DNA of 64,000 bases from an uncultured Kofleriaceae bacterium (GTDB lineage: Bacteria > Myxococcota_A > Polyangia > GCA-2747355 > CAZCFB01). Location of the stretch: positions 4,029 through 68,028 of the forward strand of contig CAZCFB010000013.1 of NCBI GenBank assembly GCA_964497805.1, read 5' to 3'. Positions 3,531 through 50,218 of the stretch are shown here, piece by piece; position 1 is the stretch's first letter, and each line of letters opens with the position of its first letter. The translations under genes and the position numbers were made by a program. The notes beneath the pieces were generated by a model. It was not told the DNA's origin and did no database searches. It worked only from the letters and a program-made list of their open reading frames with translations.

Positions 3531-3533
3531 CTG

Positions 3534-15510: not shown

Positions 15511-15513
15511 TGG

Positions 15514-21387: not shown

Positions 21388-21447
21388 GTCGAGATTAAGC
21401 CGAGGGGGGTGATTCAGGCAAGGGAGGGGCCGATCTGGCCCGGAAAA

Positions 21448-25468: not shown

Positions 25469-28140
25469 TGCGCCTCGGTCCAGTTTGATCCCACACCGGT
25501 GTCCACCTTGAGCGGCACGTCCAGCTCCATGACCGCGCCCATCTCTTCCACCACCATGGCGGCCAGCTCGTCCGCCTGATCCGGGTTCACCTCGAAGATG
25601 AGCTCATCGTGCACGGTGAGGATCATGGGGGCGTCGATCTCCTCCTGCCTCAGCCGCCTGTCCACACGCAGCATGGCCAGCTTCATCATGTCGGCCGCCG
25701 TGCCCTGGATCGGGGTATTGCGCACCATGCGTTCGGCGTACATGCGCATGTTTCGGCGCTTGTTGTTGATGTCCGACACCGGCCGCTTGCGGCCCATTAG
25801 CGTGTACACCGCCTCGGTCTCCCGGGCCCGCTCGATGGTCTGCTCCATGAATGCCTGCACCCCGGCGTAGCGCTGGAAGTAGCTCTCGATGTACTGGCTG
25901 GCGGTGGCCCGAGGGATCCGGAGCTGCCGGGAGAGGCCCCAGTCGGACTGCCCATAGATGACGCCAAAGTTAACCGCCTTGGCCACCCGCCGCTGCTCGT
26001 CGGAGACCTCCTCCGAGGGCACACCGAACACCTCGGCCGCAGTGCGCCGGTGCACGTCCTCCCCCTCGCGGAAGGCGGCGAGCAGCAGGGGGTCCCCTGA
26101 CAGGTGGGCGAGCACCCTCAGCTCCACCTGGGAGTAGTCGGCCGACAGGAGCACCCTCCCCTCCGGCGCTGTGAACGCGGCGCGGATCTGCCGCCCCAGG
26201 GGAGTGCGGATTGGGATGTTCTGCAGGTTCGGATCCGAGGAGCTGAGCCGCCCGGTGGCTGCCACGGCCTGGTTGTAGCTGGTGTGCACCCGCCCTGTGC
26301 GCGCGTTGATCAACGCCGGCAAGGTGTCGATGTATGTGTTCTTCAGCTTGGAGAGGGTGCGGAACGCCTCAATCTGCCCGGCGATGGGGTGCTCCAGGGC
26401 CAGGTCAGCCAGGGTGTCAGCGTCGGTGGAGTAGCCGGTCTTGGTCTTGCGCCCGGGGGTCAGGCCGAGGTCCTCGAACAGCAGTTTCTGGAGCTGCTTG
26501 GGTGAGTTGATGTTCACCGGCCAGTCGGCCTGTGCCTGGATCTCCTGCTCCAGCCTGACCAGATCCCCTTCCGTTTCCATGCTCAGCCTCATGAGGCACG
26601 CCGCGTCCAGGTGCACCCCGGTGCGCTCCATGCGCGCCAGCACGGGCCAGAGGGGCATCTCCACCTCGTGGAAGAGCCGCTCCAGCTCCGGCTCACGGGC
26701 AAGCCGGGCGGAGAGCCGCTGACACAGGCGGAAGGTCACGTCCGCGTCCTCCGCGGCGTACTCGGTGGCCCGGTCCACATCCACCATGGAGAAGTCGCCC
26801 CCCTTCCCCGCCACCTCCTTGAAGGAGAGCATGGAGTGGTCCATGTGGTCGCGTGCAAGGGCGTCCAGGCCGTGGGAGTTGCGCCCGGCGTCCAGCACGT
26901 AGGAGGCGAGCATGGAGTCGAAGGTCACGCCCTGTACCTCAACCCCATGTTGCTTCAACACCATCCAGTCGTACTTGAAGTTCTGGCCGTATTTGGGCAG
27001 GCCGGGGTCCGTGAGCAGCGGGTCCAGTTGGGCCAGCGCCTGCTCCACGGTGAGCTGCTCCGGCCGGCCCAGGTAACCGTGGGCCAGGGGGATGTAGCAC
27101 GCCTCCCCCTCCGCCCAGGCCAGGCTGATCCCCACCAGCTTCGCCTTCATCACGTCCAGGTCGGTGGTCTCCACATCCACGGCGCACGCCCCCGCCTCTC
27201 GCACCAGGCCGATGACCTCCTCCAGCCCCTCTGCGTCCAGGACGGTGCGGTAGGCGCTCCGGTCAACCGCGGGCGGCACGTCGCCCCCCAGGCGATCCAT
27301 GAGGCGCGTGAAGCCGAGCTCGGTGAACAGCTCGCCCAGAGCCGCGGTGTCCAGCTCGGTCCGGCGCAGGTCCTCCAGGCTGTGCGGCATATCGCAGTCC
27401 ATCTTCAGGGCAACCAGGCGGCGCGAGAGCCGGGCCTGGTCCGCGAACTCGGTGAGGTTCTGCTTCAGCTTCTTGCCCGACACCTCCTCCACCGAGGCGA
27501 GCACCGTTTCAAGGTCGCCGAACCGGGTGAGCAGCTTCACCGCTGTCTTGGGCCCCACGCCGGGCACGCCGGGCACGTTGTCCGACGCGTCCCCACACAG
27601 CGCGAGGTAGTCCCCAAGCTGGGCGGGCGTGATGCCGAACTTCTTCTCCACCCCGGCCGGATCCATGAGGCTGTTCTTCATGGTGTCCAGCTGGCGCACC
27701 TGGTCGCCCACCAGCTGCATCAAGTCCTTGTCGCTGGACACGATGGTCACATCCATGCCCGCGTCCACGGCCAGGCGCGCATAGGTGGCGATGAGGTCGT
27801 CCGCCTCCACCCCTTCCTGCCGGATGGCGGGGATACGGAAACCATCGGCCGCACGGTCCACCAGGGGGAACTGAGGCACCAGCTCCTCCGGCGCGGGGGG
27901 GCGGTTCGCCTTGTACTCGGGGTAGATCTCCTTGCGGAAGGTCGGCGCCGCCGTGTCGAACATGCAGGCCATGTAGTCGGGCTGCTCCTCGTCGAGCAGG
28001 CGGAATAACATGTTGCAGAACCCGAGCACCGCCCCGGTGGGCACACCCTTGGGGCTGGTCAGGGAGGGTAACGCGAAGAAGCTACGAAAGATGAAGCCGG
28101 AGCCGTCCAGGAGGTAGATGCGAGGTTTGGTGTCGGGCAT
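25465..28140 (-). CDS. polA: DNA polymerase I
   Basis: 5'-3' exonuclease N-terminus (RIYLLDGSGFIFRSFFA), a 3'-5' exonuclease region, and polymerase motifs (RRVAKAVNFGVIYG, LTVHDELIFE). Confidence 0.9.
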   Translation of the reverse strand: MPDTKPRIYLLDGSGFIFRSFFALPSLTSPKGVPTGAVLGFCNMLFRLLDEEQPDYMACMFDTAAPTFRKEIYPEYKANRPPAPEELVPQFPLVDRAADGFRIPAIRQEGVEADDLIATYARLAVDAGMDVTIVSSDKDLMQLVGDQVRQLDTMKNSLMDPAGVEKKFGITPAQLGDYLALCGDASDNVPGVPGVGPKTAVKLLTRFGDLETVLASVEEVSGKKLKQNLTEFADQARLSRRLVALKMDCDMPHSLEDLRRTELDTAALGELFTELGFTRLMDRLGGDVPPAVDRSAYRTVLDAEGLEEVIGLVREAGACAVDVETTDLDVMKAKLVGISLAWAEGEACYIPLAHGYLGRPEQLTVEQALAQLDPLLTDPGLPKYGQNFKYDWMVLKQHGVEVQGVTFDSMLASYVLDAGRNSHGLDALARDHMDHSMLSFKEVAGKGGDFSMVDVDRATEYAAEDADVTFRLCQRLSARLAREPELERLFHEVEMPLWPVLARMERTGVHLDAACLMRLSMETEGDLVRLEQEIQAQADWPVNINSPKQLQKLLFEDLGLTPGRKTKTGYSTDADTLADLALEHPIAGQIEAFRTLSKLKNTYIDTLPALINARTGRVHTSYNQAVAATGRLSSSDPNLQNIPIRTPLGRQIRAAFTAPEGRVLLSADYSQVELRVLAHLSGDPLLLAAFREGEDVHRRTAAEVFGVPSEEVSDEQRRVAKAVNFGVIYGQSDWGLSRQLRIPRATASQYIESYFQRYAGVQAFMEQTIERARETEAVYTLMGRKRPVSDINNKRRNMRMYAERMVRNTPIQGTAADMMKLAMLRVDRRLRQEEIDAPMILTVHDELIFEVNPDQADELAAMVVEEMGAVMELDVPLKVDTGVGSNWTEAH

Positions 28141-28178
28141 GCCCGATCTTTAGCACAGCGGGGAGTGGCAGGAATGGA

Positions 28179-28730
28179 CTATTCCTCGGCCTGTTCCTCG
28201 GCCTCGTCGTCCTGCTCATCGACCTCCGGCTCCTCCTCCGGGATCGGCGCCACCTCATCCAGCAGCTCATCCATGTCCACCTCTTTCCCCTTGCGCTTCA
28301 TGGCCACGCTGCTCTTTACCTTGGCCTTGGGCTTCTGGGCGTCATTGGGGATGAACCGGATCTCGGTCTTGATCTCGAAGGAGAGGCTGGTGAGCAGGCG
28401 CGTCAGCTCCTCGTTGAGGTTCAGGCTCTCAAGGAACTCGCGCAGCTCCCCCGCCACGATGCGGAAGAGTTCGTTCTTGGTGGTGCCCGCCTGCTGGATC
28501 AGGTACGTGGCCGCATCCTTGGGCAAGGAGAACTCGTTGGCCAGCTTGCGCACCCCTTCCTCGGTGGTGAACACCGCGCCGAGCCCGGCGTAGAAGGTCC
28601 GCTTCAAGATCTCGGGCATCAGCCCTTCCAGCCGTTGCCTCAGACGTTCGTCGATTCTGGGATCGTCTTCTCGCTCTTCGTCGATGGGGTCATTTCCTGC
28701 CATGACCAGAACCTCCTGCAAAGATTTCAT
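28179..28730 (-). CDS. hypothetical acidic protein
   Basis: The ORF has coding-like codon usage and a highly acidic C-terminus. No recognisable motifs. Confidence 0.35.
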   Translation of the reverse strand: MKSLQEVLVMAGNDPIDEEREDDPRIDERLRQRLEGLMPEILKRTFYAGLGAVFTTEEGVRKLANEFSLPKDAATYLIQQAGTTKNELFRIVAGELREFLESLNLNEELTRLLTSLSFEIKTEIRFIPNDAQKPKAKVKSSVAMKRKGKEVDMDELLDEVAPIPEEEPEVDEQDDEAEEQAEE

Positions 28731-28770
28731 GACGTTACCACAACCCCCAAAAACGATCTATGATGCGAGG

Positions 28771-30480
28771 ATGCCGCAACAACCAAACGGGGAAAGTTCG
28801 CGCAACCTGAGCCCGCTCGGGCGCGTGGTGAAGGCATACTGGGTCACCTTTATTGTGCTCTCCTCGTACCTGTGGTGGCGGTTCAACACCCGCTTCCACT
28901 CCCGCACCTCCAACCTGGCGCGGCTCGAGGCGGCCAACCGCCGCAACGCCCGGCGCATCTATATCGCCATCCTTCAACTCCAGGGCCTGTACATCAAGGT
29001 GGGGCAGCTGATCAGCATCATGACCAACTTCCTTCCGCCCGCCTTCCGCACCGAGCTGGAGGGGCTGCAGGACCAGGTGCCGCCCCGGGCCTACGACCAG
29101 ATCGAGAAGCGCCTGCGCGAGGAGTTCGACGGCAAGGGCCCTGAAGACCTGTTCGCGGAGTTCGACAAGGAGCCCCTGGCCAGCGCCAGCATCGGGCAGG
29201 TGCACAAGGCCCGCCTGCCAGATGGCCGCGAGGTGGCCGTGAAGGTGCAATACCCGGACATCGATCGGGTGGTGCGCAGCGACCTCACCTCCCTTCGCCG
29301 GATCATCGCCATCATCCAGCGCACGGTGCCCGCCTACCAGGGCCTGGACAACGTGTACCTGGAGATCAAGGCGATGATCCTGCAGGAGCTCGACTTCCAG
29401 GCGGAGGCGCGCAACATCGACGCAGTGGCGGTGAACTTCACCGACGATCCCACCATCTGTTTCCCCACGGTGGTGCCGGAGCGCACCACCCGCCGCGTGA
29501 TCACCACCGAGTTCATGGAGGGAATCAAGGTCAGCGACGTCAGCGGCATGGACACCATGGGAGTGGACCGCCAGGAGGTGGCCCGCATGGTGGTGGAGGC
29601 GTACTGCCGGCAGATCTTTCACCACGGCATCTACCACGCCGATCCCCACCCGGGGAACATCCTGATCTCCAGGGGCCCAACCATCAAGTTCCTCGACTTC
29701 GGCGCGGTGGCAGAGATCAGCCCCAACATGCGCCACGGCATCATCAACATCCTGCAGGGCGCGATCAACCGCGACACCAGCAAGGTCATCGCCGCCATGC
29801 GCGAGATGGGGTTCATCGCCCTGGACAGCGATCCCCGGGTGTTCGATCGGGTGGTGGACTACTTCCACAGCCGCTTCCAGGACGAGATCCAGCTGGAGAG
29901 CTTTAACCTCAAGGACATCAAGCTCGATCCGGCGCGTGGCCTGGAGAACCTGGCCGATCTGCGCCACATGAAGATCTCCCTGCGGGACATCACCTCCTCC
30001 TTCCAGGTGCCGAAGGAGTGGATCATGCTGGAGCGCACGGTCCTGCTGCTCATGGGGCTATGCACCGACCTGGATCCTGATCTGAACCCCATGGAGGTCA
30101 TCCGGCCGCACATCGAGGAGTTCGTGCTGGGCAAGGACCGGGACTGGTCCAAGTTCCTGCTCGATACGGCCCGGGACGTGGGCCTCTCCACCCTGGCCCT
30201 GCCCCAGGAGATCAAGAAGTTCACCAACCGGGCGTTACAGGGAGACCTTGAGGTCTCGGTGCCGGAGCTGGAGCGCGCGGCGAAGCTGCACTACACCATC
30301 GCCCAGCAGGTGATCTACACCGGGCTGGCGGTGGCCTCCTTCGCCTTCGCTCTGTCCATGCACGACCGTGGCGAGCTGGATTTCAGCCGCTACCTGATGG
30401 CGGGATCCGGCGTGTTCGGGCTGCTGCTGCTCAAGTCGATCTGGAGCACGCGGCGCTGGATGAAGCGGGGCCGGCGGTAG
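28771..30480 (+). CDS. ubiB: ABC1/UbiB-family atypical kinase
   Basis: ABC1 motifs (KVGQLISIMTNFLPPAF, ASASIGQVHKARL, HADPHPGNIL) and C-terminal TM helices. Start at MPQQPN, preceded by GCGAGG. Confidence 0.75.
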   Translation: MPQQPNGESSRNLSPLGRVVKAYWVTFIVLSSYLWWRFNTRFHSRTSNLARLEAANRRNARRIYIAILQLQGLYIKVGQLISIMTNFLPPAFRTELEGLQDQVPPRAYDQIEKRLREEFDGKGPEDLFAEFDKEPLASASIGQVHKARLPDGREVAVKVQYPDIDRVVRSDLTSLRRIIAIIQRTVPAYQGLDNVYLEIKAMILQELDFQAEARNIDAVAVNFTDDPTICFPTVVPERTTRRVITTEFMEGIKVSDVSGMDTMGVDRQEVARMVVEAYCRQIFHHGIYHADPHPGNILISRGPTIKFLDFGAVAEISPNMRHGIINILQGAINRDTSKVIAAMREMGFIALDSDPRVFDRVVDYFHSRFQDEIQLESFNLKDIKLDPARGLENLADLRHMKISLRDITSSFQVPKEWIMLERTVLLLMGLCTDLDPDLNPMEVIRPHIEEFVLGKDRDWSKFLLDTARDVGLSTLALPQEIKKFTNRALQGDLEVSVPELERAAKLHYTIAQQVIYTGLAVASFAFALSMHDRGELDFSRYLMAGSGVFGLLLLKSIWSTRRWMKRGRR

Positions 30481-30716
30481 ACGCGGCGCGGGAGTTCTCA
30501 TGCAGAAAAGAGAAAACCGGGCGCCCGCGTTGGACGCCCGGCGAGGTGTTGAGGCTCTTGCTGGTTACTGCTCCGCGGGCTTCGGCTTCTTGATCGGCCG
30601 GGGCCTCGGCTTTGGAGCGGGTCTCCACTGGGGCATCTGAACTCTCCCTACTGATGTTGTCTCGAAGAAATTCTATACTGCTAAGAATTCGTGCCATTTA
30701 GAATTCCATTGATGAA

Positions 30717-32363
30717 GTGGTGGGTCAATCGCCCATGAGCGTGTCCGAGGACAAGGGAGCGCCAGAGGCCGAGGAGCCGGCCAGGATCCAGGCCAGGATT
30801 CAGTGGGGACGTGAGGATCTCTGGATCATCCTCCCCCTGCTCGCCCTGGCCCTGGGCGTGCGCCTGTACGGCCTCATTGATCTCACCTTCATTGACGACG
30901 AACTGAGCCACATCTACTTCCTCGGCAAGGGCGCGGAGTTCGTCTGGGACGCGGTCTTCGTCTCCGCCCTGCTGCCGGTGTGGTTCTTCATGTACAAGGC
31001 CTGGATCCTGGTCGCGGGCATAGGGCTCGGCGCAAAGCTGTTCAGCGTCATGTGGGGCGTCCTGTCGGTGCTCTGCCTGTACGGGGCCATGCGCGAGGTG
31101 CGGGGCCGGTGGGTTTCAGCCGCGGCCGCCGGGCTCCTGGCGGTCATCGGCTTCCACATCCACTTCTCCCAGATCGCAACCCCCTACGCCTTCCTCACCT
31201 TCCTGGGATCCGCGGCCCTCTGGACCCTGCTGGCCACGCTCCGTCGGGGGAGCGCCATCGCGGCTGCCCTGCATGTGCTGGTGCTGGTGCTGGCCAACTA
31301 CACCCACCAGTCAGGCCCGCTGCTCTGGGGGGCGGAGCTGGCCGGCGTGCTGCTGCTCCTGGCCTTGAAGGCCCGGGGGATCAGACCTCGCCCCTTCCTG
31401 GTCGCCCAGGGCGTGGCCCTGCTGCTGAGCCTGGGCCTGATCCCGATCCTGTCCGCCCAGTGGCAGGCCGTTCAGCAGATACAGGGGATCTCATACCTGC
31501 CCGAGGTATCGGTGCCGGTGCTCCTGGACCGCCTGCACGGGTTCCTCGCCTTCGGCTCCCAGGAGGATCATGTCTCATGGGTCGTGGAGGCCATCGCCCT
31601 GGGTGTGGCCCTGGCCGGCGCCCTGGTGGCGGCGGTGCGGTCCCGGCGGCGAGGCCATGGCGCGCCCTGGGCCACCTTCCTGTTCGCCATGGTGCTGGTG
31701 AGCCCCATGCTCCTGTGCGCCATCCTGGGAGCGCTGGTGCGCAAGGAGTTGCTGTACGAGACCCGCTTCTTCGCCATCTTCATCCCTGCCCTGCCCGCGT
31801 TGACCGCGGCCGTGGCGGGGCACCTGGCGGGCCGCAAAGGCGCCCGCTGGAGGAAGGCGCGGGCCGTGGCGGCGGCGTGCCTGCTGCTGGTCTTGCTCGC
31901 GCCTCAGGCGGGGTCCTTGAGGTACCTCTTCGGGGGCACGCGGACGCAGGAGAACTTTCCCATCCACGAGATCAGCAAGATCATCGCGGCCAACTCCTTG
32001 CCGGGCGACATGGCCGTGGTGCACTCGTCCTTCTACCTCTTCTTCTTCGACTACTTCTACGCCGGGGACACCCCCCGCTTCATCGGCGCCGTCACAGAGG
32101 GCTTCCACCTACGCCCCTTTGGCGGCCTGCACGATGTGGCCGACCAGGACTCAGTGGCCGAAGTGATGGAGCGCCTGGCCGGGACCGAGCGTGTTTGGCT
32201 GGTCCTCACCCCCACCACCAACGCCCACCTCCGGGATCCGGATGGCCTCATCGTCGCCGGCATCGAGCAGGAGTTCGACCTGGACTCCCAACAGTGCTGG
32301 CGTTGTGATTCCGGCGATCCCATCCATGTGAAGCTCATGCTCCGGACGCTGTACCACGACTGA
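30717..32363 (+). CDS. polytopic membrane protein, putative GT-C fold glycosyltransferase (ArnT/PMT-like)
   Basis: About 12 predicted TM helices. A DDE motif in the first extracytoplasmic loop (TFIDDELSHIYF) and a large C-terminal soluble domain. Confidence 0.45.
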   Translation: MVGQSPMSVSEDKGAPEAEEPARIQARIQWGREDLWIILPLLALALGVRLYGLIDLTFIDDELSHIYFLGKGAEFVWDAVFVSALLPVWFFMYKAWILVAGIGLGAKLFSVMWGVLSVLCLYGAMREVRGRWVSAAAAGLLAVIGFHIHFSQIATPYAFLTFLGSAALWTLLATLRRGSAIAAALHVLVLVLANYTHQSGPLLWGAELAGVLLLLALKARGIRPRPFLVAQGVALLLSLGLIPILSAQWQAVQQIQGISYLPEVSVPVLLDRLHGFLAFGSQEDHVSWVVEAIALGVALAGALVAAVRSRRRGHGAPWATFLFAMVLVSPMLLCAILGALVRKELLYETRFFAIFIPALPALTAAVAGHLAGRKGARWRKARAVAAACLLLVLLAPQAGSLRYLFGGTRTQENFPIHEISKIIAANSLPGDMAVVHSSFYLFFFDYFYAGDTPRFIGAVTEGFHLRPFGGLHDVADQDSVAEVMERLAGTERVWLVLTPTTNAHLRDPDGLIVAGIEQEFDLDSQQCWRCDSGDPIHVKLMLRTLYHD

Positions 32364-32414
32364 TCACCCGCCCCCCCCGCGCTCCCCGGGTCCGTGCTAT
32401 ATGCTCGTACCTTC

Positions 32415-33956
32415 ATGAGGGTCTTGCTCGTCCAGCCGCCGCGGCCGCTCTGGCCATACATCAACGAACAGGACAACTACCTCCTGCCCCAGTGGATGGT
32501 CTGCCTGGGCGCTGTTTTGCGGGACGCGGGCCACGAGACGCGGTTGCTCGACTGCATGCCCGAACGCGTGGGCTGGAGGACGCTGGAGGCGCGCATCAGG
32601 GCACTTCGGCCAGACATGATCTGCGCCGGTGAGAACCACGCCCTCTTCGCCTCGAGTGTGGTGCGCCTGGTATCCCTGGCCAAGGCCATCGACCCGGCCA
32701 TGATCACGGTGGTGGGGGGCGGGCACTTCACCAACACGGTGGAGCACTACCTGCCGGCAGAGCCCATGGACTTCATCGTGCGCGGCGAGGGCGAGGCGAC
32801 CCTGCTGGAGCTGGCCGGGGCCCTGGAGTCCGGGGGCCTCGAGGAGGCCCGCACAGTGCACGGCGTCGCCTTCGCCGAGGACGGCGAGGTGCGTTACACC
32901 GCGCCCCGGGAGCTGGTGGAGGACCTGGACAGCCTGCCCATGCCGGCCTACGACCTGCTCCCCCTGCGCGCCTACGGCCGCGCCCGCTACCTGTTCAGCC
33001 CTGGCGGGGTTACCGTCCACCACAGCCGCGGCTGCACCGGGAGGTGCCAGTTCTGCGCCTGGTGGCGGCAGATGGCCCAGCGCGAGGTCACCTGCAGCGA
33101 CGGATGCCGCACCGAGCGCCTGGTGCCCCGCTGGCGCACCAAGTCCGTGGAGCGCACCCTGGCCGAGATGGAGGCGCTGCACCGCCGGTACGACAAGCGG
33201 TGCCTGGTGTTCGTGGATCCCACCTTCAACCTGGATCCTGAATGGAACGACGAGTTCGCCGAGGCGCTCATCCGGAAGCGGTGGGACCTCACCTGGTTCG
33301 CCTTCATGCGCGCCGACTTCATCCTGCGCGATGAGGGGCTGGGCATCTTCGACAAGCTCGTGCGCTCCGGGCTGGTGCACCTCTGCGTGGGCGTGGAGCG
33401 TCAGGATGACGACCAACTCGACGCCTGGGACAAGCCCGGGGCCCGGGCCGACGACTACGTCCGCTGCTTCGACCTGCTGCACGACAAGTACCCCGAGGTG
33501 TTCCGCCAGGCTACCTTCATCGTGGGCACAGCCTCGGAGACCCGGGCGTCCATGATGTCCCAGCTGCGCTACGCCCGCCGCATCCGCGCGGACTACCCCG
33601 CCTTCCACCCGGAAACCCCGTTCCCCGGCACCGACCTGTACGAGGAGGCGCGGCGCACCGGCAGGCTGGAGCTCACCGACTTCGACGACTTCGACATGAT
33701 GACCGCGGTGATGGGGACGGACCACCTGACCCGCGAGCAGGTGGAGGATGGCCTGGTCCGGCTCAACAAGGCGTACGTGGGGCCCAGGTGGTGGCTCAAG
33801 GGCATGCTCTCCAGCTCCGCGTACCGGCGAGACATGTACATATGGTGGTCCCTGGTGACCGGCCGGGTCTTCCTGGACGCGGTGAAGCGCCGGGTGAACC
33901 CCCTCTCCCCGGAGCCGTACACCAGCGCCTTCACCCCCGACTGGTACGAGGCATAG
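32415..33956 (+). CDS. cobalamin-binding (class B) radical SAM protein, paralog 1
   Basis: N-terminal Rossmann-like B12-binding domain (MRVLLVQPP...ICAGENHA). Radical SAM motif CTGRCQFC. Confidence 0.8.
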   Translation: MRVLLVQPPRPLWPYINEQDNYLLPQWMVCLGAVLRDAGHETRLLDCMPERVGWRTLEARIRALRPDMICAGENHALFASSVVRLVSLAKAIDPAMITVVGGGHFTNTVEHYLPAEPMDFIVRGEGEATLLELAGALESGGLEEARTVHGVAFAEDGEVRYTAPRELVEDLDSLPMPAYDLLPLRAYGRARYLFSPGGVTVHHSRGCTGRCQFCAWWRQMAQREVTCSDGCRTERLVPRWRTKSVERTLAEMEALHRRYDKRCLVFVDPTFNLDPEWNDEFAEALIRKRWDLTWFAFMRADFILRDEGLGIFDKLVRSGLVHLCVGVERQDDDQLDAWDKPGARADDYVRCFDLLHDKYPEVFRQATFIVGTASETRASMMSQLRYARRIRADYPAFHPETPFPGTDLYEEARRTGRLELTDFDDFDMMTAVMGTDHLTREQVEDGLVRLNKAYVGPRWWLKGMLSSSAYRRDMYIWWSLVTGRVFLDAVKRRVNPLSPEPYTSAFTPDWYEA

Positions 33957-33961
33957 CCGCC

Positions 33962-35395
33962 TTGCGCTTCCTCCTGATCAACCCCGCCCAGGATCCGCGC
34001 CTCACCGCCGGCTACTACCGGCGCATGCTCTCCATCATGCCGCCCATCAACCTGGCATACCTGGCCGCGGCGCTGGAGCAGGCCGGGGTGGAGGTGGCGG
34101 TGCACGACGACGCGGTGGCCGGCGGGGATCCAGCCGCGCTGGCGAACGCGCTCAGGCGCTTCCGTCCCGACGCCGTGGGGCTCTCCGTGGTGACCAGCAT
34201 GATGCCCGACGCGGCGCGGGTGATCCGGGGGGTGCGGCAGGCGGCGCCGGAGGCTGCCGTGGTGCTCGGCAACATCCACCCCACCCTGTATGACGGTGAC
34301 CTCCTGCGGCAGGGTCTGGCCGACGTTGTGGTGCGCGGTGAAGGGGAGCACACCGTCGTGGAGTTGTGCCACGCGCTCTCCTCGGCGGGTGGGGACATGG
34401 CGCAGGTGCCCGGCGTCTCCTTCATGCGGGAGGGCGAGGTGGTGCGCACCCCGGACAGGCCGCGCATCGAGGACCTGGACAGCCTGCCCCTGCCCGCCTG
34501 GCACCTGTTCCCCCTGGACGGCTACCGCCTGTTCAACTTCGCCCGTGTACGGGAGCCGGGCACGCTGATCCAGGGATCGCGCGGATGCCCGTACGGCTGC
34601 ACCTACTGCTCTCTCAAGATCATGGGCTCAAGGCGGCGGGTTCGCAGCGCCGGGAGCCTGGCCGACGAGTTCGAATACCTGCTGTCCCGCTTCGGCTACC
34701 GGCAGCCCTCCTTCGTTGACCCTATTTTCCCTTTCACCAAGAAGGAAGGCCTCGACTTCGCCGCCGAGGTTGTGCGCCGGGGCCTTCACCGGGAGCAGGT
34801 CTGGATCACCGAGACCCGCGCTGATCTGGTGGATCTGGAGCTACTCCAGGCCCTCCGCGAGGCGGGCCTGAGGCGCATCATGTTCGGCTTCGAGGCGGGC
34901 CAGGACGCCCAACTCCGGGCCATCAACAAGCGCGGCTCGGCCCAACAGGCGGAGCGGGCGGTTCAGCTGGCGCGCAAGGCCGGCGTCCAGGTCATCGGCT
35001 TCTTCATGCTCGGCATCCCTGGCTCGGACCGGGCGTCCCTGCAGGCCACCATTGACCACGCCCGCGGGCTGGACATCGACTTCGCCAAGTTCACTGTGTT
35101 CACACCCTTCCCCGGCACGTCGGCGCACAAGGAGCTCCTGGCGCGGGGTGATCTGCCAGAGCCCGAGAACTGGCGCCGCTACACCAGCTACCCGTCCAGG
35201 GAGGTCCCGCCCTGCTACGTACCCGAGGGGCTGTCCGCCGACGATCTCGTGAACGCCCAACGGCGCGCCTACCTCTCCTGGTACCTGCGCCCGACCGTGA
35301 TCTACAACCAGTTGGCGCGGGTGCGCGCCCTCGGGTTGGATGAGCTGCTGGCCGGCGCGGGCACAGTGCTCTCGGCCTTGAGGAGGCGGGGCTGA
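33962..35395 (+). CDS. cobalamin-binding (class B) radical SAM protein, paralog 2
   Basis: Likely TTG start giving (M)RFLLINPAQD. B12-binding N-terminal domain. Radical SAM motif CPYGCTYC. Confidence 0.75.
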   Translation: MRFLLINPAQDPRLTAGYYRRMLSIMPPINLAYLAAALEQAGVEVAVHDDAVAGGDPAALANALRRFRPDAVGLSVVTSMMPDAARVIRGVRQAAPEAAVVLGNIHPTLYDGDLLRQGLADVVVRGEGEHTVVELCHALSSAGGDMAQVPGVSFMREGEVVRTPDRPRIEDLDSLPLPAWHLFPLDGYRLFNFARVREPGTLIQGSRGCPYGCTYCSLKIMGSRRRVRSAGSLADEFEYLLSRFGYRQPSFVDPIFPFTKKEGLDFAAEVVRRGLHREQVWITETRADLVDLELLQALREAGLRRIMFGFEAGQDAQLRAINKRGSAQQAERAVQLARKAGVQVIGFFMLGIPGSDRASLQATIDHARGLDIDFAKFTVFTPFPGTSAHKELLARGDLPEPENWRRYTSYPSREVPPCYVPEGLSADDLVNAQRRAYLSWYLRPTVIYNQLARVRALGLDELLAGAGTVLSALRRRG

Positions 35396-35546
35396 TGAGC
35401 CTTAAGACCGCTGGCGGCGCGGTCGCGCCCGCCGGCCACAGCCTGGCGCAGCCGGGCGAAACAACAATGCGGGCCGAAGGCCCTCAGCTGGGCACGTCGG
35501 GCCGAAGCGCCCGTCGGGGACAGCTGATATTGAGGCGGGGCTGATG
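35378..35546. repeat. 17-20 bp direct repeat (TTGAGG(AGG)CGGGGCTGATG) flanking a 133-bp intergenic insert between rSAM paralogs 2 and 3
   Basis: Repeat 1 (35378-35397) covers the paralog-2 stop and contains an overlapping ATG. Repeat 2 (35530-35546) carries the paralog-3 ATG. Confidence 0.45.
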
Positions 35547-36893
35547 CCCTCTCGGCGCCCCGTCTACCTTGTGCTGCCGTTCCAGCCCATGGCCGGCACC
35601 GAGCGGTTCTATCCGCGCACCATGGTGAGGCCGCCGCTGGGGCTCCTCATCCTGTCCCGGGTGCTCAGGGAGGCCGGCTACAGGACCCGGGTGTTTGACC
35701 TCTCCGCCCGCAAGATGAGCCCCGCCAGCCTCGGGGAGGCGGCCCGCCGTGAGCGCCCCCTGGCCGTGGGCTTCTACGCCAACTGCCTGACCCCTCGCTG
35801 GACCACGGCGTACATGCGGGCGGTGCTGGAAAGCGCCCCCGGCGCCCCCGTGGTGGTGGGTGGACCTGGCGGCGACTCCTACCAGCAGTGGCTGGATGTG
35901 GGCGCCGCCGCCGTGCACCGCGGGGAGGGTGAGCGCGCCATCGTGCCCATCGTGCGCTACCTGCAGGGCGAGGAGGACCCGGCGGAGATCCCGGGCCTGG
36001 TCTACCGCGATCCAGCCGGCCAGGTGCGCGTGAACCCGGTGGGTCCCGTGATCGAGGACCTGGACAGTGTGCCCCTGCCCGACTGGGACGCGGTGAAGAT
36101 CGCGGACTACCACGACCGCGCGTTCCTCCTGGCCCGGCGGCCCTACTTCACCTCCATGACCTCGCGCGGCTGCCCCTACCGGTGCGCGTTCTGCTACCAG
36201 GGCGTCCACTCCCGCCATACCTACCGAAGCCGCAGCGTGGGGCGGGTCCTGGAGGAGCTTGAGATCCTGGTGGGCCGTTACGGTGTGCGGCATGTTGCCT
36301 TCCAGGACGATGTCTTCGGCCTCGAGCCAGGCTGGGTGGAGTCTTTCTGCGAGCAGATCCAGCGCCGCGGGCTGCGCCTGGGCTGGAACGCCATCGTGCA
36401 CCCCATGACCTTCCGCGGGCGGCACGGAGAGCTGTTCGCCCTGATGAAGGCGGCCGGCCTCAACACCATCTCCGTGGGGGTGCAATCGTCGTCGCCGGAG
36501 GTGCTGGAGCGGATCCACCGCTCACCGCGGGAACCGGAGCATGTGGCCGCTGCGTTGGAGGCGGCCCACGAGCTGGGGATCATGAGCGCCATCGAGTACA
36601 TCTACGGCCTGCCCGGGGACACGGTGGCCACCCTGCGCGAGAACACCAGGGTCGCTGCCAGCTCGCTGGCCACCGTGGTCAACTTCCACGACCTGACCAT
36701 CTACCCTGGCATCCCATTGAGCGGCATGAGCGCGGAGGAGCGCGGCGAGCTGCTGCCCGGGCCCGTGGTCAAGCGGGAGCTGCTCAGGGCCTACCTCGCC
36801 TTCTACGCCAACCCGGCCGCGCTGGGGCGCATCGCCCACTTCGCCGGGCTGGGCGCCGCCAGGCGTATTGCCGGCCGATTTCTGTCATCATGA
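35544..36893 (+). CDS. cobalamin-binding (class B) radical SAM protein, paralog 3
   Basis: B12-binding N-terminal domain. Radical SAM motif CPYRCAFC. Its stop overlaps the paralog-4 start (ATGA). Confidence 0.8.
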   Translation: MPSRRPVYLVLPFQPMAGTERFYPRTMVRPPLGLLILSRVLREAGYRTRVFDLSARKMSPASLGEAARRERPLAVGFYANCLTPRWTTAYMRAVLESAPGAPVVVGGPGGDSYQQWLDVGAAAVHRGEGERAIVPIVRYLQGEEDPAEIPGLVYRDPAGQVRVNPVGPVIEDLDSVPLPDWDAVKIADYHDRAFLLARRPYFTSMTSRGCPYRCAFCYQGVHSRHTYRSRSVGRVLEELEILVGRYGVRHVAFQDDVFGLEPGWVESFCEQIQRRGLRLGWNAIVHPMTFRGRHGELFALMKAAGLNTISVGVQSSSPEVLERIHRSPREPEHVAAALEAAHELGIMSAIEYIYGLPGDTVATLRENTRVAASSLATVVNFHDLTIYPGIPLSGMSAEERGELLPGPVVKRELLRAYLAFYANPAALGRIAHFAGLGAARRIAGRFLSS

Positions 36894-38410
36894 GACCTCC
36901 CATGAAGGTCCTGTTCATCTCCTCCAACCTGTACTCCCAGTTCCCCGCCTGCTTCCCCAACGGCGTGGGTGCTTTGAGCGCGTACCTCAAGCGTGAGGGG
37001 CACCAGGTGGAGGCCCTGCACCTGGGCCGGAAGCGTGATGAGGCTCGCCTGCCGGGGTTGCTGCGGGGCCTGGAGCCCGACCTGGTGGGCATCTCGACGG
37101 TGACCTGCGAGACGCCCATCATCCGGCGGGTGGCCAGGGCGGCCAAGGCGTGGCGCCCGCGGGTGCCGGTGCTGGTGGGCGGCATCCACGCCATCGTCTC
37201 CCCGGAGAGCGTGCTGGAGGTGCAGCAGGTGGACGCGGTGTGCTGCGGCGAGGGGGAGCTGGCCCTGGCAGAGTACCTGCGCCGCATGGAGGCAGGGGAG
37301 GACCTGGCCGGGGTGGGCAACTTCATCACCCGAGCCGACGGCGGCGGCACGGTCAGGGGCGAGAGCATGGCGTTCATCCAGGAGCTGGACGATCTGCCCC
37401 TCATGGACCGCGGCGTCACGGACATGCAGCAGGTCATCGACGCCAACAACGGCGTGCTCAACGTGATCTTCTCCCGGGGCTGCCCCTGGACCTGCAAGTT
37501 CTGCTGCAACCGCGACATCAAGAAGGCGGGCACCGGCACCTACGCCCGGGTCAACAGCGTGCCCCGGGCCATCGCCGAGCTGGAAACCCTGGCCGACAAG
37601 TACAGCTTCCGCCATGTCCTCTTCCGGGACGACACCTTCACCTGGAACCGGGAGTGGTCCCTGGAGTTCGTGGCGGCCTACAGGGAGAGCAGCCTCACCG
37701 CGCCGTTCGACATCTTCAGCCGGGTGGACTGCCTGGACGACGAGCTGCTGCAAGCCCTGGCCAGCGGCGGCTGTCATCACATCTTCATCGGCCTCGACTC
37801 GGGCAACGACTTCATCCGCAACGAGGTGCTGCACAAGGAGCAGGAGAACGAGGACCTGCTGCCAATCTGCGAGAAGATGAAGGCCCTCGGCATCACGCCG
37901 ATGATCTCCAACATCGTGGGCCTACCCCACGAAACACCGGAGATGTTCAGGGACACCATCGAGCTCAACAAGCAGATCCACCAGGACATGGTGGTCTTCT
38001 CTCCCACCTGCGGCGCCTGCCCCAAGATCTGGGTCTTCACACCGTGGCCCGGCTCGGAGCTGTACAACATGTGCCAGCGCGAGGGGTGGCTCGAGGAAGA
38101 GGCCGGGGTCCGCAAGGTGTACCGCGAGTCGACCCTGCGCATGCCCGACTTCCCGGCGGCAGAGATTGACCGCCAGTACCGGCGCTTCCGTTTCAACGTG
38201 TACAAGGACAACTTCCCCCTGCACGCCCTGCTCTATCTGGTCTATGACAGCGCCAAGTTCCAGTCGCTGTTCGAGCGGATCCCCATGGGGCTCATCGGCG
38301 GCGTGCGACAGTCGGTGCTGACGTTGATGAACCCGGGTAAGAGGCGGGAGTTTGTGGAGAGGATGCTGGGAGGGGGTGGGTTGAGGGATGATCCGCGGGG
38401 TCACGCTTAG
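36890..38410 (+). CDS. cobalamin-binding (class B) radical SAM protein, paralog 4
   Basis: MKVLFISSNLYSQ B12-binding N-terminal domain. Radical SAM motif CPWTCKFC. Confidence 0.8.
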   Translation: MRPPMKVLFISSNLYSQFPACFPNGVGALSAYLKREGHQVEALHLGRKRDEARLPGLLRGLEPDLVGISTVTCETPIIRRVARAAKAWRPRVPVLVGGIHAIVSPESVLEVQQVDAVCCGEGELALAEYLRRMEAGEDLAGVGNFITRADGGGTVRGESMAFIQELDDLPLMDRGVTDMQQVIDANNGVLNVIFSRGCPWTCKFCCNRDIKKAGTGTYARVNSVPRAIAELETLADKYSFRHVLFRDDTFTWNREWSLEFVAAYRESSLTAPFDIFSRVDCLDDELLQALASGGCHHIFIGLDSGNDFIRNEVLHKEQENEDLLPICEKMKALGITPMISNIVGLPHETPEMFRDTIELNKQIHQDMVVFSPTCGACPKIWVFTPWPGSELYNMCQREGWLEEEAGVRKVYRESTLRMPDFPAAEIDRQYRRFRFNVYKDNFPLHALLYLVYDSAKFQSLFERIPMGLIGGVRQSVLTLMNPGKRREFVERMLGGGGLRDDPRGHA

Positions 38411-38449
38411 TCGACGGTCACGGCCCAAGGCCCACGGCCCATGTCTCCC

Positions 38450-41400
38450 CTACAATCCCTTGAGGATTCTCACGACCTGGGCGCGTTCGGCCTGGGTGCT
38501 TGACCTGATGGGGGTGCGGGCCAGGTAGAGGCGGTAGAAGAAGATGGCCTTCTTCCGCTTGCCTGCCTTGCGGTGGGCGTCACCCAGCAGCCTGATGGCG
38601 CCGGACAGATCCGGGTTCAGGGAGAGGGCGCGGCCGCCGTCGTTGATGGCGCCCGAGGGATCACCCTTTCCGAGCCGGGCCTTGCCCCGCAGCATGTACA
38701 CCCGGGCGGTGGGGCTCATGGAGAGCAGCGATGAGGCAGCCTTGGCGGCCGCAGCGTACTGCCTGGCTGCCAGCAGCGACTCCACCCGGCTGGCGCGGCT
38801 CTTGACCAGCCGGGCCGCGCTTGCCTGTTCCCGGGCCGAACGCCGGCACAGCTCCAGGTTGTATCGGGCAGCCTCGTCGTCGCTGTTAAGGCGCAGGACC
38901 TTGCGGTAGAAGGACGATGCCCTGTCCATCTGCCCCAGGGCCATGGCCGTGGCGCCGCCCTTGTACAGGGCCTCCTGGCTGGACGGATCCAGCTTGGCCG
39001 CCTGCTCGTACAGGCCCATGGCCACCACCAGGTGCCGCTTGGAGAACTCACGGTCCGCCATGCGAACCAGCCCCTTGGCCGCATCGCTGGCAGACTTGTA
39101 CATGCTTGTGGGCGCCTGGGCCGCCGGGAAGGGGAGCGTGCCCTCGGCCGACAGGTCCCCGCTCACCGCCCGGGCCAACTCCACGCTGCCGCTGGACGGG
39201 GCGGGAGTGGCGACGGGCTGACGCGCAGCCTCGGCCTCCGCCGCCTTACGATCCTTGGCCTCCTGGCGGGCCCGAACCTTGGCCTCGCGAGCCGCCAGGG
39301 CCTCGGCCTTCTTGCGCGCCCTGGCGTCCTTGCGCGCCTGGATCTTCGCCTCTCGCGCGGCCTTTGCCTCGGCCCGCTTGCGCGCCTTGGCCTCCTTGCG
39401 CGCCCGAATCTTTGCCCGCCGGGCCTCCTTGGCCTCGGCTGCCTCGCGCTCTGCGTCGAGAGCCAGGGCCTGGCGCTTACGACCCTTGATGTACTCCGCA
39501 ACGGTGACCGTGCGGCCGCGGTCGCCTGGCATCGTGATCTTGGTGGCCGGGGGGGTTCCCCCCAGGGCCTTCAGTTCCTGGTGAGCGGCCAGCACCTGGG
39601 AGGCGGCGAAGGCCCGGTTCTCGACTCTCAAGTACTTGCCGTAGGCGATGACCGCCTGGTCCTTCATGCCGAGGTCGCGCAGGGTACGGGCCAGCTCAAA
39701 GTGGGCGTCCGGGCTGGGCTTGCCCTTGCCGAGGTAACGGCGAAAGGAGCCGACAGCGGAGACGTTCTCCTTGGCCGCCCGCTCCAGGCGCGCCTTGTGC
39801 AACCAGCCAGTTTGGTAGCCGAGGTTGTCGCGCATGCCCACGCGCAGGGCCGAGATCCCCTGCTTGTAATGCCCGAGCTGGTACGCGCAGAACGCGAGCC
39901 CGTTATAAGCGGCCGTATTGAACGGGTCCTTCCTGGTGGCGCGAACGAACAGGGGCTGCGCCTGCTGGCACTTGCCCAGGCGGGCCAGGGTGTCCCCCTG
40001 CTGGCGCAGCTTGTCCGAGGCGGACACGGCGTTGCCGTCGGGCTCACCCGGCGCCGGGGGCGCCATGGGCCTGTCCTCGGCCGGGGACACCAGGGGGAGC
40101 AATCCGCGCTTGCCCTTCTTCCTGCGTCCCTTGCCCTTGGATGCGTAGGCCGCTGTGGCGTCCATCATGGCCATGTCGCGCTCTCGCTGGCGCCTGGCCT
40201 CTTCGTCCCCGGCGCTTGAACTGTCGGCAGCCACTGCTGCCTCGGCCTCGCTGGCCGCCACAGGTTTCTTGTCCGCGCTGTCCACGGGCGGCAGCCCCGG
40301 CAGGGCTGGCGGCGAGGCGCTGGCGGCGGCTGGAGCTGCGGCAGCCACAGGGGCGGCCTTCCCCTTGCCCCGCATGCGCGCGATCTCCACACGGGCCCGG
40401 TGGATCCACTTCTCCTGCCCGCTGCGCTTCTCCTTCTCGATGTACCGCTCGAACGATGTGGCCGCGGCGCTCTTCTTGCCCATCCCCTTGTAGGCCAGGG
40501 CGAGGCCAAAGTACGGATCCGCGTTGTCCGGGTCCTTCTCGATGTACCGCTGGTAGGCCCTCACGGCCTTGCCGTGGCGCCCCAGCTTGCGAAGCGCGTA
40601 GGCCAGGTTGTACCAGGCCTGGTTGTAGCCCGGGTTCGCCTTGATCGCGGACCGGAACACCTTCACCGCCTTGCTATAGCGGCGAGAACGGAACAGGCAG
40701 GTGGCCAGGGCGTCCAGGGCCGCCGTGTCACCGGGGTTCGCCCTGATGGCGGCCAGGTACTTGTCTGCGGCCTCCGCGACCTTTCCCTCCCGATACAGTC
40801 TGTCCCCCTGCTGGCGGGCCGTCTCATTGCGAGCTGGCCTTGGCGTCGCGGCTGGCGGGAGCGTGGGCGCCGTCGCCGTCGCTGGCGCGAGCGCTGGAGC
40901 TGGTTTGGCAGCAGGCGCACTTGTGGCGGCCTTCTTCAACATCTCATCAGCCATGGCCCCTGCCTTGGCCACCCAGGAGGCGCGGTCAGACCGCTTCTCC
41001 AGCTCGGTGTAGCGGCGGAAGGCGTCCGAAGCCAGGCCAAACTTGCCCTGTGCCTTGTAGGCCAGCCCGAGGCCGAAGTACGGGTCTGCGCTGGTGGGTT
41101 CCATGCGGGAGAAGGTCTTGTATGCGCGGATGGCGTCCGCCATTTTCCCCCTCTTCCGGAGGGCGTAGGCCAGGTTGTACCAACCCTCGCCGTACTTCCG
41201 GTCCCGCTTCACCGCCCGCTGCAGCAGTGAGATGGCTTGGTCGTATTTGCGCTGACGCAGGTAGTGGGTGGAGAGGGCGGTGTACCCTTCCCGGTAGCTC
41301 GGATCCGCAGCCACCGCCTTCTTGTAGCTCGCCTCGGCCGAGACCTGATCGCCGGCGGCTACATGCGCGTCACCCTGTTTTTTGAGGGCCGCCGCCTTCT

Positions 41401-49324: not shown

Positions 49325-50218
49325 TTAAAGCAGGGTCTGGGCGCCGTCCTCGAAGGCCATGAAGCTATCCTTGCCCAGCACCTCCAGCAGGGGCCCGTTG
49401 TTGGCCACCTCGTCGGTGTCGGTGGTCTGCAGCAGGTCCTTGTTGAAGATGGAGACGAAGTAGGTGCTCGCGATGAAGAGCTGCTTCGGCAGGTGCAGCT
49501 TGAACACGTTCTTGCCGATGAGCCCGCACAGGATGTCGGTGATGTCGTCCAGGGGGATCGCCCTGGGCCCGCCGATATCGAAGGCCTCGCCCTTGAACCG
49601 ATCCTTCTCGATGAAGAAGTTGATGGCGTGGTTGAAGTCGTCCACATGCACCGGCTGCCGGGTGTACCTGCCGTCGCCGATGACCGGGATGGCGGGCAGC
49701 TTCTTGATGAAGTTGACCAGGGCGTGGAACGACTGGTCGCGGGCCGCCTTGTGGTCGGGCAGCAGCGGACCGTATGGCGCCGCCGGGCGCAGGCTCACGT
49801 GGGGCACGCCCGAGGCCTTGGCCGCGTTCTCGTCGTCGATCTTGGACTGGGCGTACTGGTTCAGCTTGGAGAAGTTCACCTGCGAGGAGCTGATGTAAAC
49901 CAGCTTGGCCCCGGAGATTTTGCACGCCTCCAGCACGTTGACCATCATCTTGGTGTTGATGTCGCGGGCGTTGTCCTCGGTGATGGCCGCGGCCATGTGC
50001 ACGATGACGTCCGGCTCGGTGGAGGCCAGCATCTGGGCTGACATGGGCCGGGTCAGGTCAGCGGTGAGGCAGGTGAGGTTGTCCGCGGTGAAGCCCAGCG
50101 GCGTGGACCGCACCTGGGCCACCAGCTTCCAGTCAGGGTGGTTGCGCAGGGTGTACTTGATGTAGTGAGCGCCCAGGAATCCGGACGCGCCGGTAACGGT
50201 GACGGTTAGAGGGGCCAT
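49325..50218 (-). CDS. NAD(P)-dependent epimerase/dehydratase-family SDR
   Basis: TGASGFLG Rossmann motif and catalytic YAQSK. Confidence 0.7.
   Translation of the reverse strand: MAPLTVTVTGASGFLGAHYIKYTLRNHPDWKLVAQVRSTPLGFTADNLTCLTADLTRPMSAQMLASTEPDVIVHMAAAITEDNARDINTKMMVNVLEACKISGAKLVYISSSQVNFSKLNQYAQSKIDDENAAKASGVPHVSLRPAAPYGPLLPDHKAARDQSFHALVNFIKKLPAIPVIGDGRYTRQPVHVDDFNHAINFFIEKDRFKGEAFDIGGPRAIPLDDITDILCGLIGKNVFKLHLPKQLFIASTYFVSIFNKDLLQTTDTDEVANNGPLLEVLGKDSFMAFEDGAQTLL

Follow-up and report, generated by a model that had tools for sequence, protein, structure and literature searches.

A 64,000-nucleotide stretch of DNA from an uncultured Kofleriaceae bacterium (contig CAZCFB010000013.1 of assembly GCA_964497805.1, positions 4,029 to 68,028; hereafter the window) carries a gene for a divergent membrane glycosyltransferase of the GT-C fold, followed by four genes for radical S-adenosylmethionine (rSAM) proteins of class B, the class that carries a B12-binding domain. 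These genes belong to a module which is real, conserved and uncharacterised, and which is built from known enzyme superfamilies; the locus is the local version of a widespread and variable neighbourhood of class-B rSAM and GT-C genes in uncultured bacteria. What the analysis shows is the domain content, the fold of the membrane protein, the close packing of the operon, a gene set that is conserved, and a non-random adjacency of GT-C and rSAM genes. As judged from the sequence, the five genes form a single operon (30735-38410, + strand), composed as follows:

30735-32363 (open reading frame (ORF) from 30717), + strand: GT-C-fold membrane glycosyltransferase, ArnT/PMT_2-like by profile comparison and structural model, 542 residues
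32415-33956 (ORF from 32394), + strand: rSAM1, class-B radical SAM (PF02310, PF04055), CTGRCQFC, 513 residues
33962-35395, + strand: rSAM2, class-B radical SAM (PF02310, PF04055), CPYGCTYC, TTG start, 477 residues
35544-36893, + strand: rSAM3, class-B radical SAM (PF02310, PF04055), CPYRCAFC, 449 residues
36890 or 36902 to 38410, + strand: rSAM4, class-B radical SAM (PF02310, PF04055), CPWTCKFC, 506 residues (ATG 36890) or 502 residues (ATG 36902)

The five genes lie on one strand, with gaps of 51 nt between the GT-C gene and rSAM1 and of 5 nt between rSAM1 and rSAM2. Public gene calls place the starts at ATG 30735 (GT-C), ATG 32415 (rSAM1), TTG 33962 (rSAM2) and ATG 36902 (rSAM4). The original prediction, made from the sequence before this analysis, had listed a membrane protein, four rSAM genes, their cysteine motifs and an ATGA at 36890-36893, and all of these are present. 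It had also taken rSAM3 and rSAM4 to be translationally coupled; the ATGA does lie at their junction, but since rSAM4 may start at ATG 36890 or at ATG 36902, this junction is either a 4-nt overlap or, with the public start, an 8-nt gap. As that reading had also claimed, no cobalamin riboswitch was detected: no Rfam family reached its gathering score in the whole window or E≤1 within 28000-38500, and the scans of the window for a cobalamin riboswitch, other RNAs and tRNAs returned no match.

Each rSAM protein matched both PF02310 (B12-binding; 61, 93, 51 and 67 bits for rSAM1 to rSAM4, gathering score 32.1) and PF04055 (Radical_SAM; 49, 74, 79 and 77 bits, gathering score 29.5), and the four CxxxCxxC motifs share one alignment column. 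The three cysteines do not vary within the rSAM1 family (C207/C211/C214) or within the rSAM4 family, and a GGxH stretch in the N-terminal domain is common to rSAM1, rSAM2 and rSAM4 and absent from rSAM3. By domain architecture all four are class-B rSAM proteins, as had been proposed, with cobalamin use predicted. We know of no universal sequence signature for the cobalamin ligand in class-B rSAM proteins. The closest solved proteins by sequence are AprD4 for rSAM2 (97.6 bits) and rSAM4 (74.4 bits), TsrM for rSAM3 and CysS for rSAM1, and an AlphaFold (AF2) model of rSAM1 (predicted local distance difference test score (pLDDT) 89.1) superposes on AprD4 as best match, and on TsrM, CysS, MgmA, OxsB and TokK. 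AprD4, to which rSAM2 and rSAM4 come closest among solved proteins, carries a B12-like domain and yet reportedly does not bind cobalamin (PMC12931638), so that cobalamin use by the four proteins stays a prediction. All four lack membrane segments and are predicted to be soluble, and the GT-C protein is polytopic. With pairwise identities of only 26-31% and four separate orthogroups, rSAM1 to rSAM4 are ancient paralogues rather than products of recent tandem duplication. Their earlier description as four consecutive tandem paralogues thus holds for the row of genes, but it passes over this ancient divergence and the 150-nt spacer that parts rSAM2 from rSAM3.

None of the four proteins reached the curated cut-off of a characterised family (BchE, HpnJ/R, ApyD, AprD4, PhpK, ladderane), so that none could be placed by this measure in a described pathway; such a placement would have overturned the original prediction. 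Against a cut-off of 481, the BchE model TIGR02026 scored rSAM1 at 197.6, rSAM2 at 199.5, rSAM3 at 107.2 and rSAM4 at 92.1 bits; it is the best NCBIfam model for rSAM1, where the alignment is full-length, and for rSAM2. HpnJ (TIGR03471) scored 99-157 bits, highest for rSAM2, against a cut-off of 577.6, and HpnR (TIGR04367) at most 129 bits against 650. ApyD (NF050148) scored at most 151 bits against 750 and was the top NCBIfam match of rSAM3 (113 bits) and rSAM4 (126 bits). Scores were likewise below the cut-off for TIGR03975, an rSAM C-methyltransferase model for ribosomally synthesised peptides with post-translational modifications (RiPPs; at most 107 bits against 282), for AprD4 (NF033070; 52-107 bits against 500) and for the ladderane-type rSAM (TIGR04072; 80-115 bits against 360). 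The function of most sequence groups of B12-type rSAM proteins is not known, and these groups have been described as unexplored (PMC12931638).

Assignment of the membrane protein needed more than a single-sequence search. Its sole Pfam match, PF10131, stayed below threshold (25.4 bits, gathering score 26.4), PF13231 and PF02366 did not reach their gathering scores with the single sequence, and NCBIfam gave no match. Membership in the GT-C superfamily therefore rests on profile-profile comparison and profile search. A three-sequence profile of the subfamily aligned by hhalign with PMT_2 proteins from related loci (98.8% probability, E 6.9e-17, 374 columns), and a profile search with the subfamily retrieved almost exclusively PF13231/GT39 proteins. 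A sequence profile search of the PDB with the GT-C alignment gave a chance match only, and the fold search was decisive instead. The AF2 model, built on an alignment of 40 sequences (pLDDT 86.5, predicted template modelling score 0.90), was compared with the PDB by Foldseek, and the best 43 matches were all GT-C enzymes, including STT3, AglB, PglB, ArnT (template modelling (TM) score 0.57-0.59), ALG9/12, Pmt4, AftA/B, DPY19 and Emb. Model and hydropathy indicate about 11-13 membrane helices and a C-terminal alpha/beta periplasmic domain. The first outer loop carries an acidic motif, IDDELSH (residues 53-59), with a D55-E56 acidic pair: E56 is invariant across 8 sequences, and both residues are at least 90% conserved across 40. 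R214 is also conserved. On this evidence the protein is a divergent GT-C-fold, ArnT/PMT-like glycosyltransferase, which agrees with its first identification. The subfamily is rare. A word-index search found 3 proteins only, and a full HMMER pass over 1.84 billion representatives was needed to reveal its 14 clusters at E≤1e-30; the next matches are generic GT-C proteins, with E falling to about 1e-16. A scan of metagenome contigs with the GT-C alignment returned no relative, and one with rSAM4 did return relatives.

Synteny was compared over 84 non-redundant loci that bear rSAM1 (numbered L), all gathered by similarity to the query genes; loci of high G+C content were mapped with an ORF caller aware of third-codon-position G+C (GC3). 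The search for a GT-C gene with tandem B12-type rSAM genes, which had been put forward as a check, recovered all five genes, their order unchanged, in L090, a second metagenomic species, with identities to the window of 52% (GT-C), 79% (rSAM1), 77% (rSAM2), 63% (rSAM3) and 83% (rSAM4). A third species, the metagenome-assembled genome (MAG) 'uncultured Myxococcales SRP077602_co5_47' (L005/L008), has only GT-C, rSAM1 and rSAM2. Outside these, the start of one GT-C subfamily member abuts the stop of a class-B-like rSAM gene (L126), another lies with three B12-rSAM genes and a GT2 gene within 8 kb (L128), and a further one (L129) is accompanied by several GT-C genes and a GDSL gene, with no rSAM gene within its short contig. 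Directly 5' of the rSAM/GT-C pair in L126, on the same strand (2865-6496), lies a corrinoid methyl-transfer set consisting of a B12-binding protein, S-methyl_trans, Met_synt_B12 and an MTTB-family methyltransferase.

Among the 84 loci the orthogroup of rSAM1 is present in all, by design of the search, that of rSAM2, which usually partners rSAM1, in 38 (within 10 kb of rSAM1), that of rSAM4 in 7 and that of rSAM3 in 2. The rSAM4 orthologues (52-83% identity) adjoin rSAM1 in L090, L092, L089, L012 and L016, and rSAM3, the rarest of the four, has its sole orthologue among these loci in L090 (63% identity). A coupling of an rSAM tetrad to a glycosyltransferase had been predicted. The link between GT-C and rSAM genes is conserved, but 'tetrad' overstates its core, because rSAM1 and rSAM2 are widespread and rSAM4 and rSAM3 occur in so few loci.

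The rSAM1 family itself is large and tightly conserved: its members, of about 510 residues and 45-88% identical to the window protein, fill at least 847 clusters and are either unnamed or automatically named 'BchE' (in JGI, anaerobic Mg-protoporphyrin IX monomethyl ester cyclase). Relatives are encoded at 212 loci of species-representative genomes. The best 80 of these are all in MAGs, labelled Myxococcales/Myxococcota, Omnitrophota, Elusimicrobia/Endomicrobium, 'Deltaproteobacteria' and others. The rSAM sets around rSAM1 are variable, ranging from 2 to 11 genes; at least three class-B rSAM genes are present in 29 of the 84 loci, and the maximum of 11 is reached in L088. The class-B rSAM proteins of these loci fall into 51 orthogroups, 36 of which are singletons. 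In L022, L031 and L040 a PMT_2-like GT-C gene that follows the rSAM1 orthologue overlaps its end by 4-16 nt, and in L041 such a gene begins 20 nt past the orthologue; the pair in L031 is set between cysS and gatA/gatB. GT-C genes are embedded among rSAM genes in L042, L051, L088, L091 and L100. In total, 9 of the 13 GT-C genes found in the 84 loci directly adjoin a class-B rSAM gene (expected 3.4, P=0.007), and a GT-C gene is present in 7/27 loci with at least three rSAM genes versus 5/57 others (P=0.048). The adjacency of GT-C and rSAM genes is therefore conserved and non-random, and the predicted coupling recurs well outside the window.

Several of these loci have features of their own. The largest set, L088 (= L023; MAG labelled 'Proteobacteria bacterium', Lac Pavin sediment), packs 11 class-B-type rSAM genes, a PMT_2 gene and a methyltransferase gene into 20 kb (1605-21530). 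Gene fusions were seen in L042 (19313-21415, GT2 with rSAM-SPASM, 700 residues) and in L091 (17049-19091, B12-rSAM with a class-I methyltransferase, 680 residues; 13425-15404, B12-rSAM with a Polyketide_cyc2-like domain, 659 residues). A class-I methyltransferase gene lies directly 5' of rSAM1 in mostly more distant loci (52 by a first clustering), and is often preceded by lpxC and ruvCAB: the order ruvC-ruvA-ruvB ... lpxC, methyltransferase, rSAM1 is conserved in L034, L039, L046 and about 20 other loci, roughly at 7000-10000. This order may reflect shared descent or may be a clue to lipid A.

The 5' limit of the module and the spacer inside it involve the following features:

28771-30480 (ORF from 28684), + strand: ABC1/UbiB-type atypical kinase (PF03109, 261 bits)
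30516-30542, no strand: G+C-rich hairpin of 11 pairs, directly 3' of the UbiB stop codon
about 30640-30716: AT-rich stretch 5' of the GT-C gene
35395-35544, + strand: spacer of 150 nt with a 49-codon ORF, probably no gene

The upstream kinase scored 303.3 bits with the UbiB model TIGR01982, below the cut-off of 487.55, and reached only the general ABC1 domain PF03109. It is separated from the GT-C gene by 254 nt which contain the strong 11-bp G+C hairpin and the AT-rich stretch, and these (30516-30716) likely mark the operon boundary and promoter region. On the + strand an A-run lies ahead of the hairpin and no T-run comes after it, an arrangement expected of a - strand terminator, yet no - strand gene ends there. 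In at least 84 related loci no UbiB homologue adjoins an rSAM1 or GT-C gene, so this adjacency occurs in the window only. UbiB, which the original prediction had named along with the glycosyltransferase as preceding the rSAM genes, is ruled out as a component of the system by the synteny of related loci together with the intergenic hairpin, and is probably a neighbour in its own transcription unit. In L005 and L090 the gene 5' of GT-C instead encodes a secreted protein, 80% identical between the two. In the L005 copy (7809-10004), which overlaps the GT-C gene by 4 nt, there is a MopE motif at the N-terminus and a long C-terminal region without a Pfam match; the L090 copy (3-1766) is cut by the contig end, with its C-terminal 572 residues remaining. 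This protein could be an acceptor protein.

Between rSAM2 and rSAM3 (35379-35546) the window carries a 150-nt insertion flanked by a duplicated junction, TTGAGGAGGCGGGGCTGATG and TTGAGGCGGGGCTGATG. The insertion is absent from L090, where the rSAM2 stop and the rSAM3 start overlap as TGATG, and its sequence occurs once in the window. Public pipelines call its 49-codon ORF as a gene, and we considered it as a RiPP precursor or small subunit; it is unrelated to a 49-residue ORF of L089, and because it is unconserved and flanked by the duplicated junction, both roles were dropped.

Clues to the substrate came from neighbouring genes. L051 carries PMT_2, GT2, dehydratase/epimerase, DegT aminotransferase, rSAM-SPASM and U32 genes, L042 a DegT gene beside the GT2-rSAM/SPASM fusion, L089 rml genes with GT2, GT4 and LPG_synthase_TM, and L092 carbamoyltransferase and GDSL genes. 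In L114 and L116, heptose-nucleotide pathway genes, GT9, GT2 and GT-C stand beside distant class-B rSAM genes. A Pfam census of 123 neighbour ORFs of multi-rSAM loci counted Radical_SAM 11, GT2 6, GDSL_2 6, U32 4 and epimerase 3. The control, 123 ORFs from the surroundings of rSAM1 genes that stand alone, yielded methyltransferase, RuvB, LpxC, thiolase and 3HCDH, and no glycan family (GT2, GDSL_2, epimerase) was within its top 25. Such recurring glycan-type neighbours fit what the original prediction had suggested, namely that the locus serves an envelope glycoconjugate and is not a classical secondary-metabolite cluster. Genes of hopanoid, tetraether, ether-lipid or quinone-ring synthesis were identified neither in the window nor among annotated neighbours, photosynthesis genes were not identified in the window, and no conserved precursor peptide was found at the window and the related loci compared (L090, L089). 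Tandem Peptidase_U32 paralogues are interleaved with rSAM genes in L051 (161-5781) and L100 (5174-9979). The U32 family includes O2-independent hydroxylases such as UbiU/V, and these genes hint at anaerobic hydroxylation in the same pathway.

The explanation that we favour, at somewhat less than an even chance, is that a sugar or glycolipid precursor undergoes radical tailoring in the cytoplasm and is then transferred to the envelope by the GT-C enzyme. As to the class of substrate, the types of reaction and the sequence in which they occur, we infer the following. The four soluble rSAM proteins would each carry out a different radical step on one sugar or glycolipid precursor, linked to a nucleotide or to polyprenyl phosphate; these steps could be C-methylation via methylcobalamin, or deoxygenation, ring rearrangement or cyclisation. 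At the outer face of the inner membrane, the GT-C enzyme would then take the finished unit from a polyprenyl-phosphate carrier and pass it to an envelope acceptor, which could be lipid A or lipopolysaccharide (LPS), another glycan or a secreted protein. In aminoglycoside pathways, sugars are modified by class-B rSAM enzymes (GenK, GenD1, AprD4), and a glycolipid head group is remodelled by HpnJ alongside the GT2 enzyme HpnI.

Several observations weigh against this explanation. No orthogroup of the four contains a characterised member, and the window operon contains no gene for a nucleotide-sugar or polyprenyl-phosphate-sugar synthase (GT2), the nearest epimerase/dehydratase genes lying 11 kb off on the opposite strand. 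Only about 14% of rSAM1 loci have a GT-C gene within 10 kb, and the commonest partner of rSAM1 elsewhere is the class-I methyltransferase among housekeeping genes (54/84 loci by phmmer), a partnership that is uninformative on sugars. The enrichment of glycan genes, moreover, comes from small counts, from loci that are not independent and from a set collected by similarity.

Known systems resemble the locus in part. ArnT of the Arn pathway (ArnB, ArnC, ArnA, ArnT), which adds aminoarabinose to lipid A, is the bacterial enzyme structurally closest to the GT-C protein, at the TM score given above, and the set found in L051 (DegT aminotransferase, GT2, dehydratase/epimerase, PMT_2) is Arn-like. 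However, the window operon has no equivalents of ArnA, ArnB or ArnC, its GT-C protein is about 14% identical to ArnT, and the Arn pathway itself is without rSAM enzymes. Hopanoid modification (HpnI GT2, HpnK, HpnJ; HpnP/HpnR methylases) also pairs a class-B rSAM with a glycosyltransferase acting on a membrane glycolipid, and HpnJ is among the better NCBIfam matches (157 bits, rSAM2), but the glycosyltransferase there is a GT2 and not a GT-C, scores are far under 577-650 bits and no hopanoid genes were identified here. In aminoglycoside tailoring (GenK, GenD1 and Fms7 methylases; AprD4 diol dehydratase) several class-B-type rSAM enzymes act on sugars in one pathway; the locus differs in having no scaffold gene, in its chromosomal, envelope-type setting in uncultured bacteria and in its AprD4 scores. 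The archaeal tetraether enzymes (GrsA/GrsB, Gmm), as described, are B12-type paralogues that act at different positions of one membrane-anchored molecule, whereas no tetraether synthase was identified here and the context is bacterial with a GT-C gene. C-methyltransferases of proteusins and other RiPPs (PoyB/PoyC, ApyD) share the feature of multiple class-B rSAM genes per operon; rSAM3 and rSAM4 score 113-126 bits against 750, and no precursor peptide or RiPP machinery was identified. A literature search on GT-C with B12-type rSAM proteins, including B12-rSAM in LPS and O-antigen and bchE homologues in non-phototrophs, found no described system of this kind, and the reviews on lipid-modifying rSAM enzymes (PMC13459092) and on B12-type rSAM enzymes (PMC12931638) turned up none with this layout, in line with the earlier claim that it was undescribed.

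Alternatively, the rSAM enzymes might methylate or cyclise the alkyl or isoprenoid chains of membrane lipids, with the GT-C enzyme adding or handling a head group, as modelled on HpnP/HpnR, GrsA/B, Gmm and the proposed ladderane enzyme; the extra methyl branches of branched tetraethers would be an example. Known lipid-modifying rSAM enzymes are largely of the B12 type (PMC13459092), uncultured Myxococcota have been proposed as producers of branched tetraethers (PMC11868695), a lipid-associated ABC1/UbiB kinase lies next door, and rSAM1 to rSAM4 show weak matches to HpnJ (99-157 bits), HpnR and the ladderane rSAM. We consider tail modification unlikely: scores are far under the equivalog cut-offs, genes for shc, Tes/Mss, ElbD, Ger or a polyprenyl synthase were identified neither in the window nor among annotated neighbour ORFs, the UbiB gene is not conserved with the module, and the recurrent neighbours are of glycan type. 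The same kinase would have a part in an O2-independent synthesis of quinones or aromatic prenyl lipids, in which UbiB, UbiE-like methyltransferases and U32 hydroxylases would work with the rSAM proteins as anaerobic C-methylases. UbiB adjoins the operon in the window, the class-I methyltransferase lies directly 5' of rSAM1 in 54 loci (its L088 copy also matching PF01209, Ubie_methyltran), and U32 genes stand among the rSAM genes of L051 and L100, with a homologue in the flanks of L010, L027 and L036. Yet a hairpin and a promoter-like gap set UbiB apart, and in no related locus does it accompany the module; genes of the ubiA, ubiD/X or men/mqn type were identified neither in the window nor among annotated neighbours, and a GT-C enzyme has no role in quinone synthesis; we regard this route as very improbable.

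Modification of a peptide or protein, such as C-methylation of a RiPP or proteusin-like product (PoyB/C, ApyD), is quite improbable. ApyD is the top NCBIfam match of rSAM3 and rSAM4, and a conceivable target is the MopE-motif secreted protein encoded 5' of GT-C in L005 (with its 4-nt overlap) and L090, which would then be glycosylated by the PMT-like GT-C enzyme; PMT-family enzymes glycosylate proteins. But the ApyD scores are about 6-fold under the cut-off, genes for a leader peptidase, a transporter or RiPP recognition were not identified, and no conserved precursor ORF was found, the 49-codon ORF being absent from L090 and unrelated to that of L089. Nor is there a MopE protein 5' of GT-C in the window, and exported proteins are untypical substrates for cytoplasmic rSAM enzymes. 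We give still less credence to the GT-C and rSAM genes being mere neighbours with no functional link: about 86% of rSAM1 loci lack a GT-C gene within 10 kb, but the arrangement is kept in at least three species for this GT-C subfamily, two further members lie next to or near rSAM genes, stop and start codons overlap in several phyla, and adjacency is above expectation. Least credible is the BchE-like tetrapyrrole chemistry that automatic names suggest. BchE is the source of those names, being the best NCBIfam model for rSAM1 and rSAM2, JGI uses the cyclase name for many family members, and the rSAM1 orthologue of L041 adjoins hemD/cobA- and hemL-like genes; against this, the scores (198-200 bits) are under half of the cut-off of 481, no photosynthesis cluster or other bch or photosynthesis gene was identified in the window, and the family is found under non-phototrophic lineage labels, including Omnitrophota and Endomicrobium MAGs.

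The rest of the window is a chromosomal fragment of 66% G+C, which includes polA, an EF-G paralogue, Hsp70, sdhCAB, dinB, sigma-54 activators, Ser/Thr kinases, long TPR proteins and MopE-motif proteins. The same DNA is present in metagenome assemblies JGI 3300007511 (64.5 kb), 3300007510 and 3300009008 and in ENA ERZ23498660 (71.5 kb). The nearest related loci are in MAGs with the label Myxococcales, which, with the gene content, points to a probably Myxococcota-like source. On the - strand at 49325-53610, two NAD-dependent epimerase/dehydratase genes, a Kelch-repeat protein gene and an rSAM-SPASM gene may form a second sugar-modifying set. Two adjacent proteins of about 800 residues each (7831-10200 and 10390-12810) have no Pfam match and an unusual composition (first-codon-position G+C about 0.53, GC3 about 0.92); the pair may be a duplication, and the second is Asp/Cys-rich with a lipoprotein-like N-terminus.

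Taken together, the locus links a GT-C enzyme to four rSAM groups, of which one is very large and occurs across several candidate phyla, and thereby provides a concrete, testable hypothesis on their substrate class, for which the compact five-gene operon offers a practical start by heterologous expression. If radical tailoring of a sugar or glycolipid precursor before GT-C transfer is the right explanation, the envelopes of uncultured bacteria bear sugars or glycolipids altered by radical chemistry. This would mean new enzymology, with C-C bond formation on glycans, and possibly new biomarkers, and would provide a source of surface diversity relevant to interactions with phages and predators. 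More broadly, and more doubtfully, the rSAM sets and their GT-C partners could represent an unrecognised but widespread route for making and diversifying envelope glycoconjugates with lineage-specific enzyme sets, in which rSAM enzymes would C-alkylate, deoxygenate or rearrange carrier-linked sugars or glycolipids before export by GT-C. Such a route would be a radical-chemistry counterpart of O-antigen diversification, and its products would include sugars or lipids new to cultured organisms.

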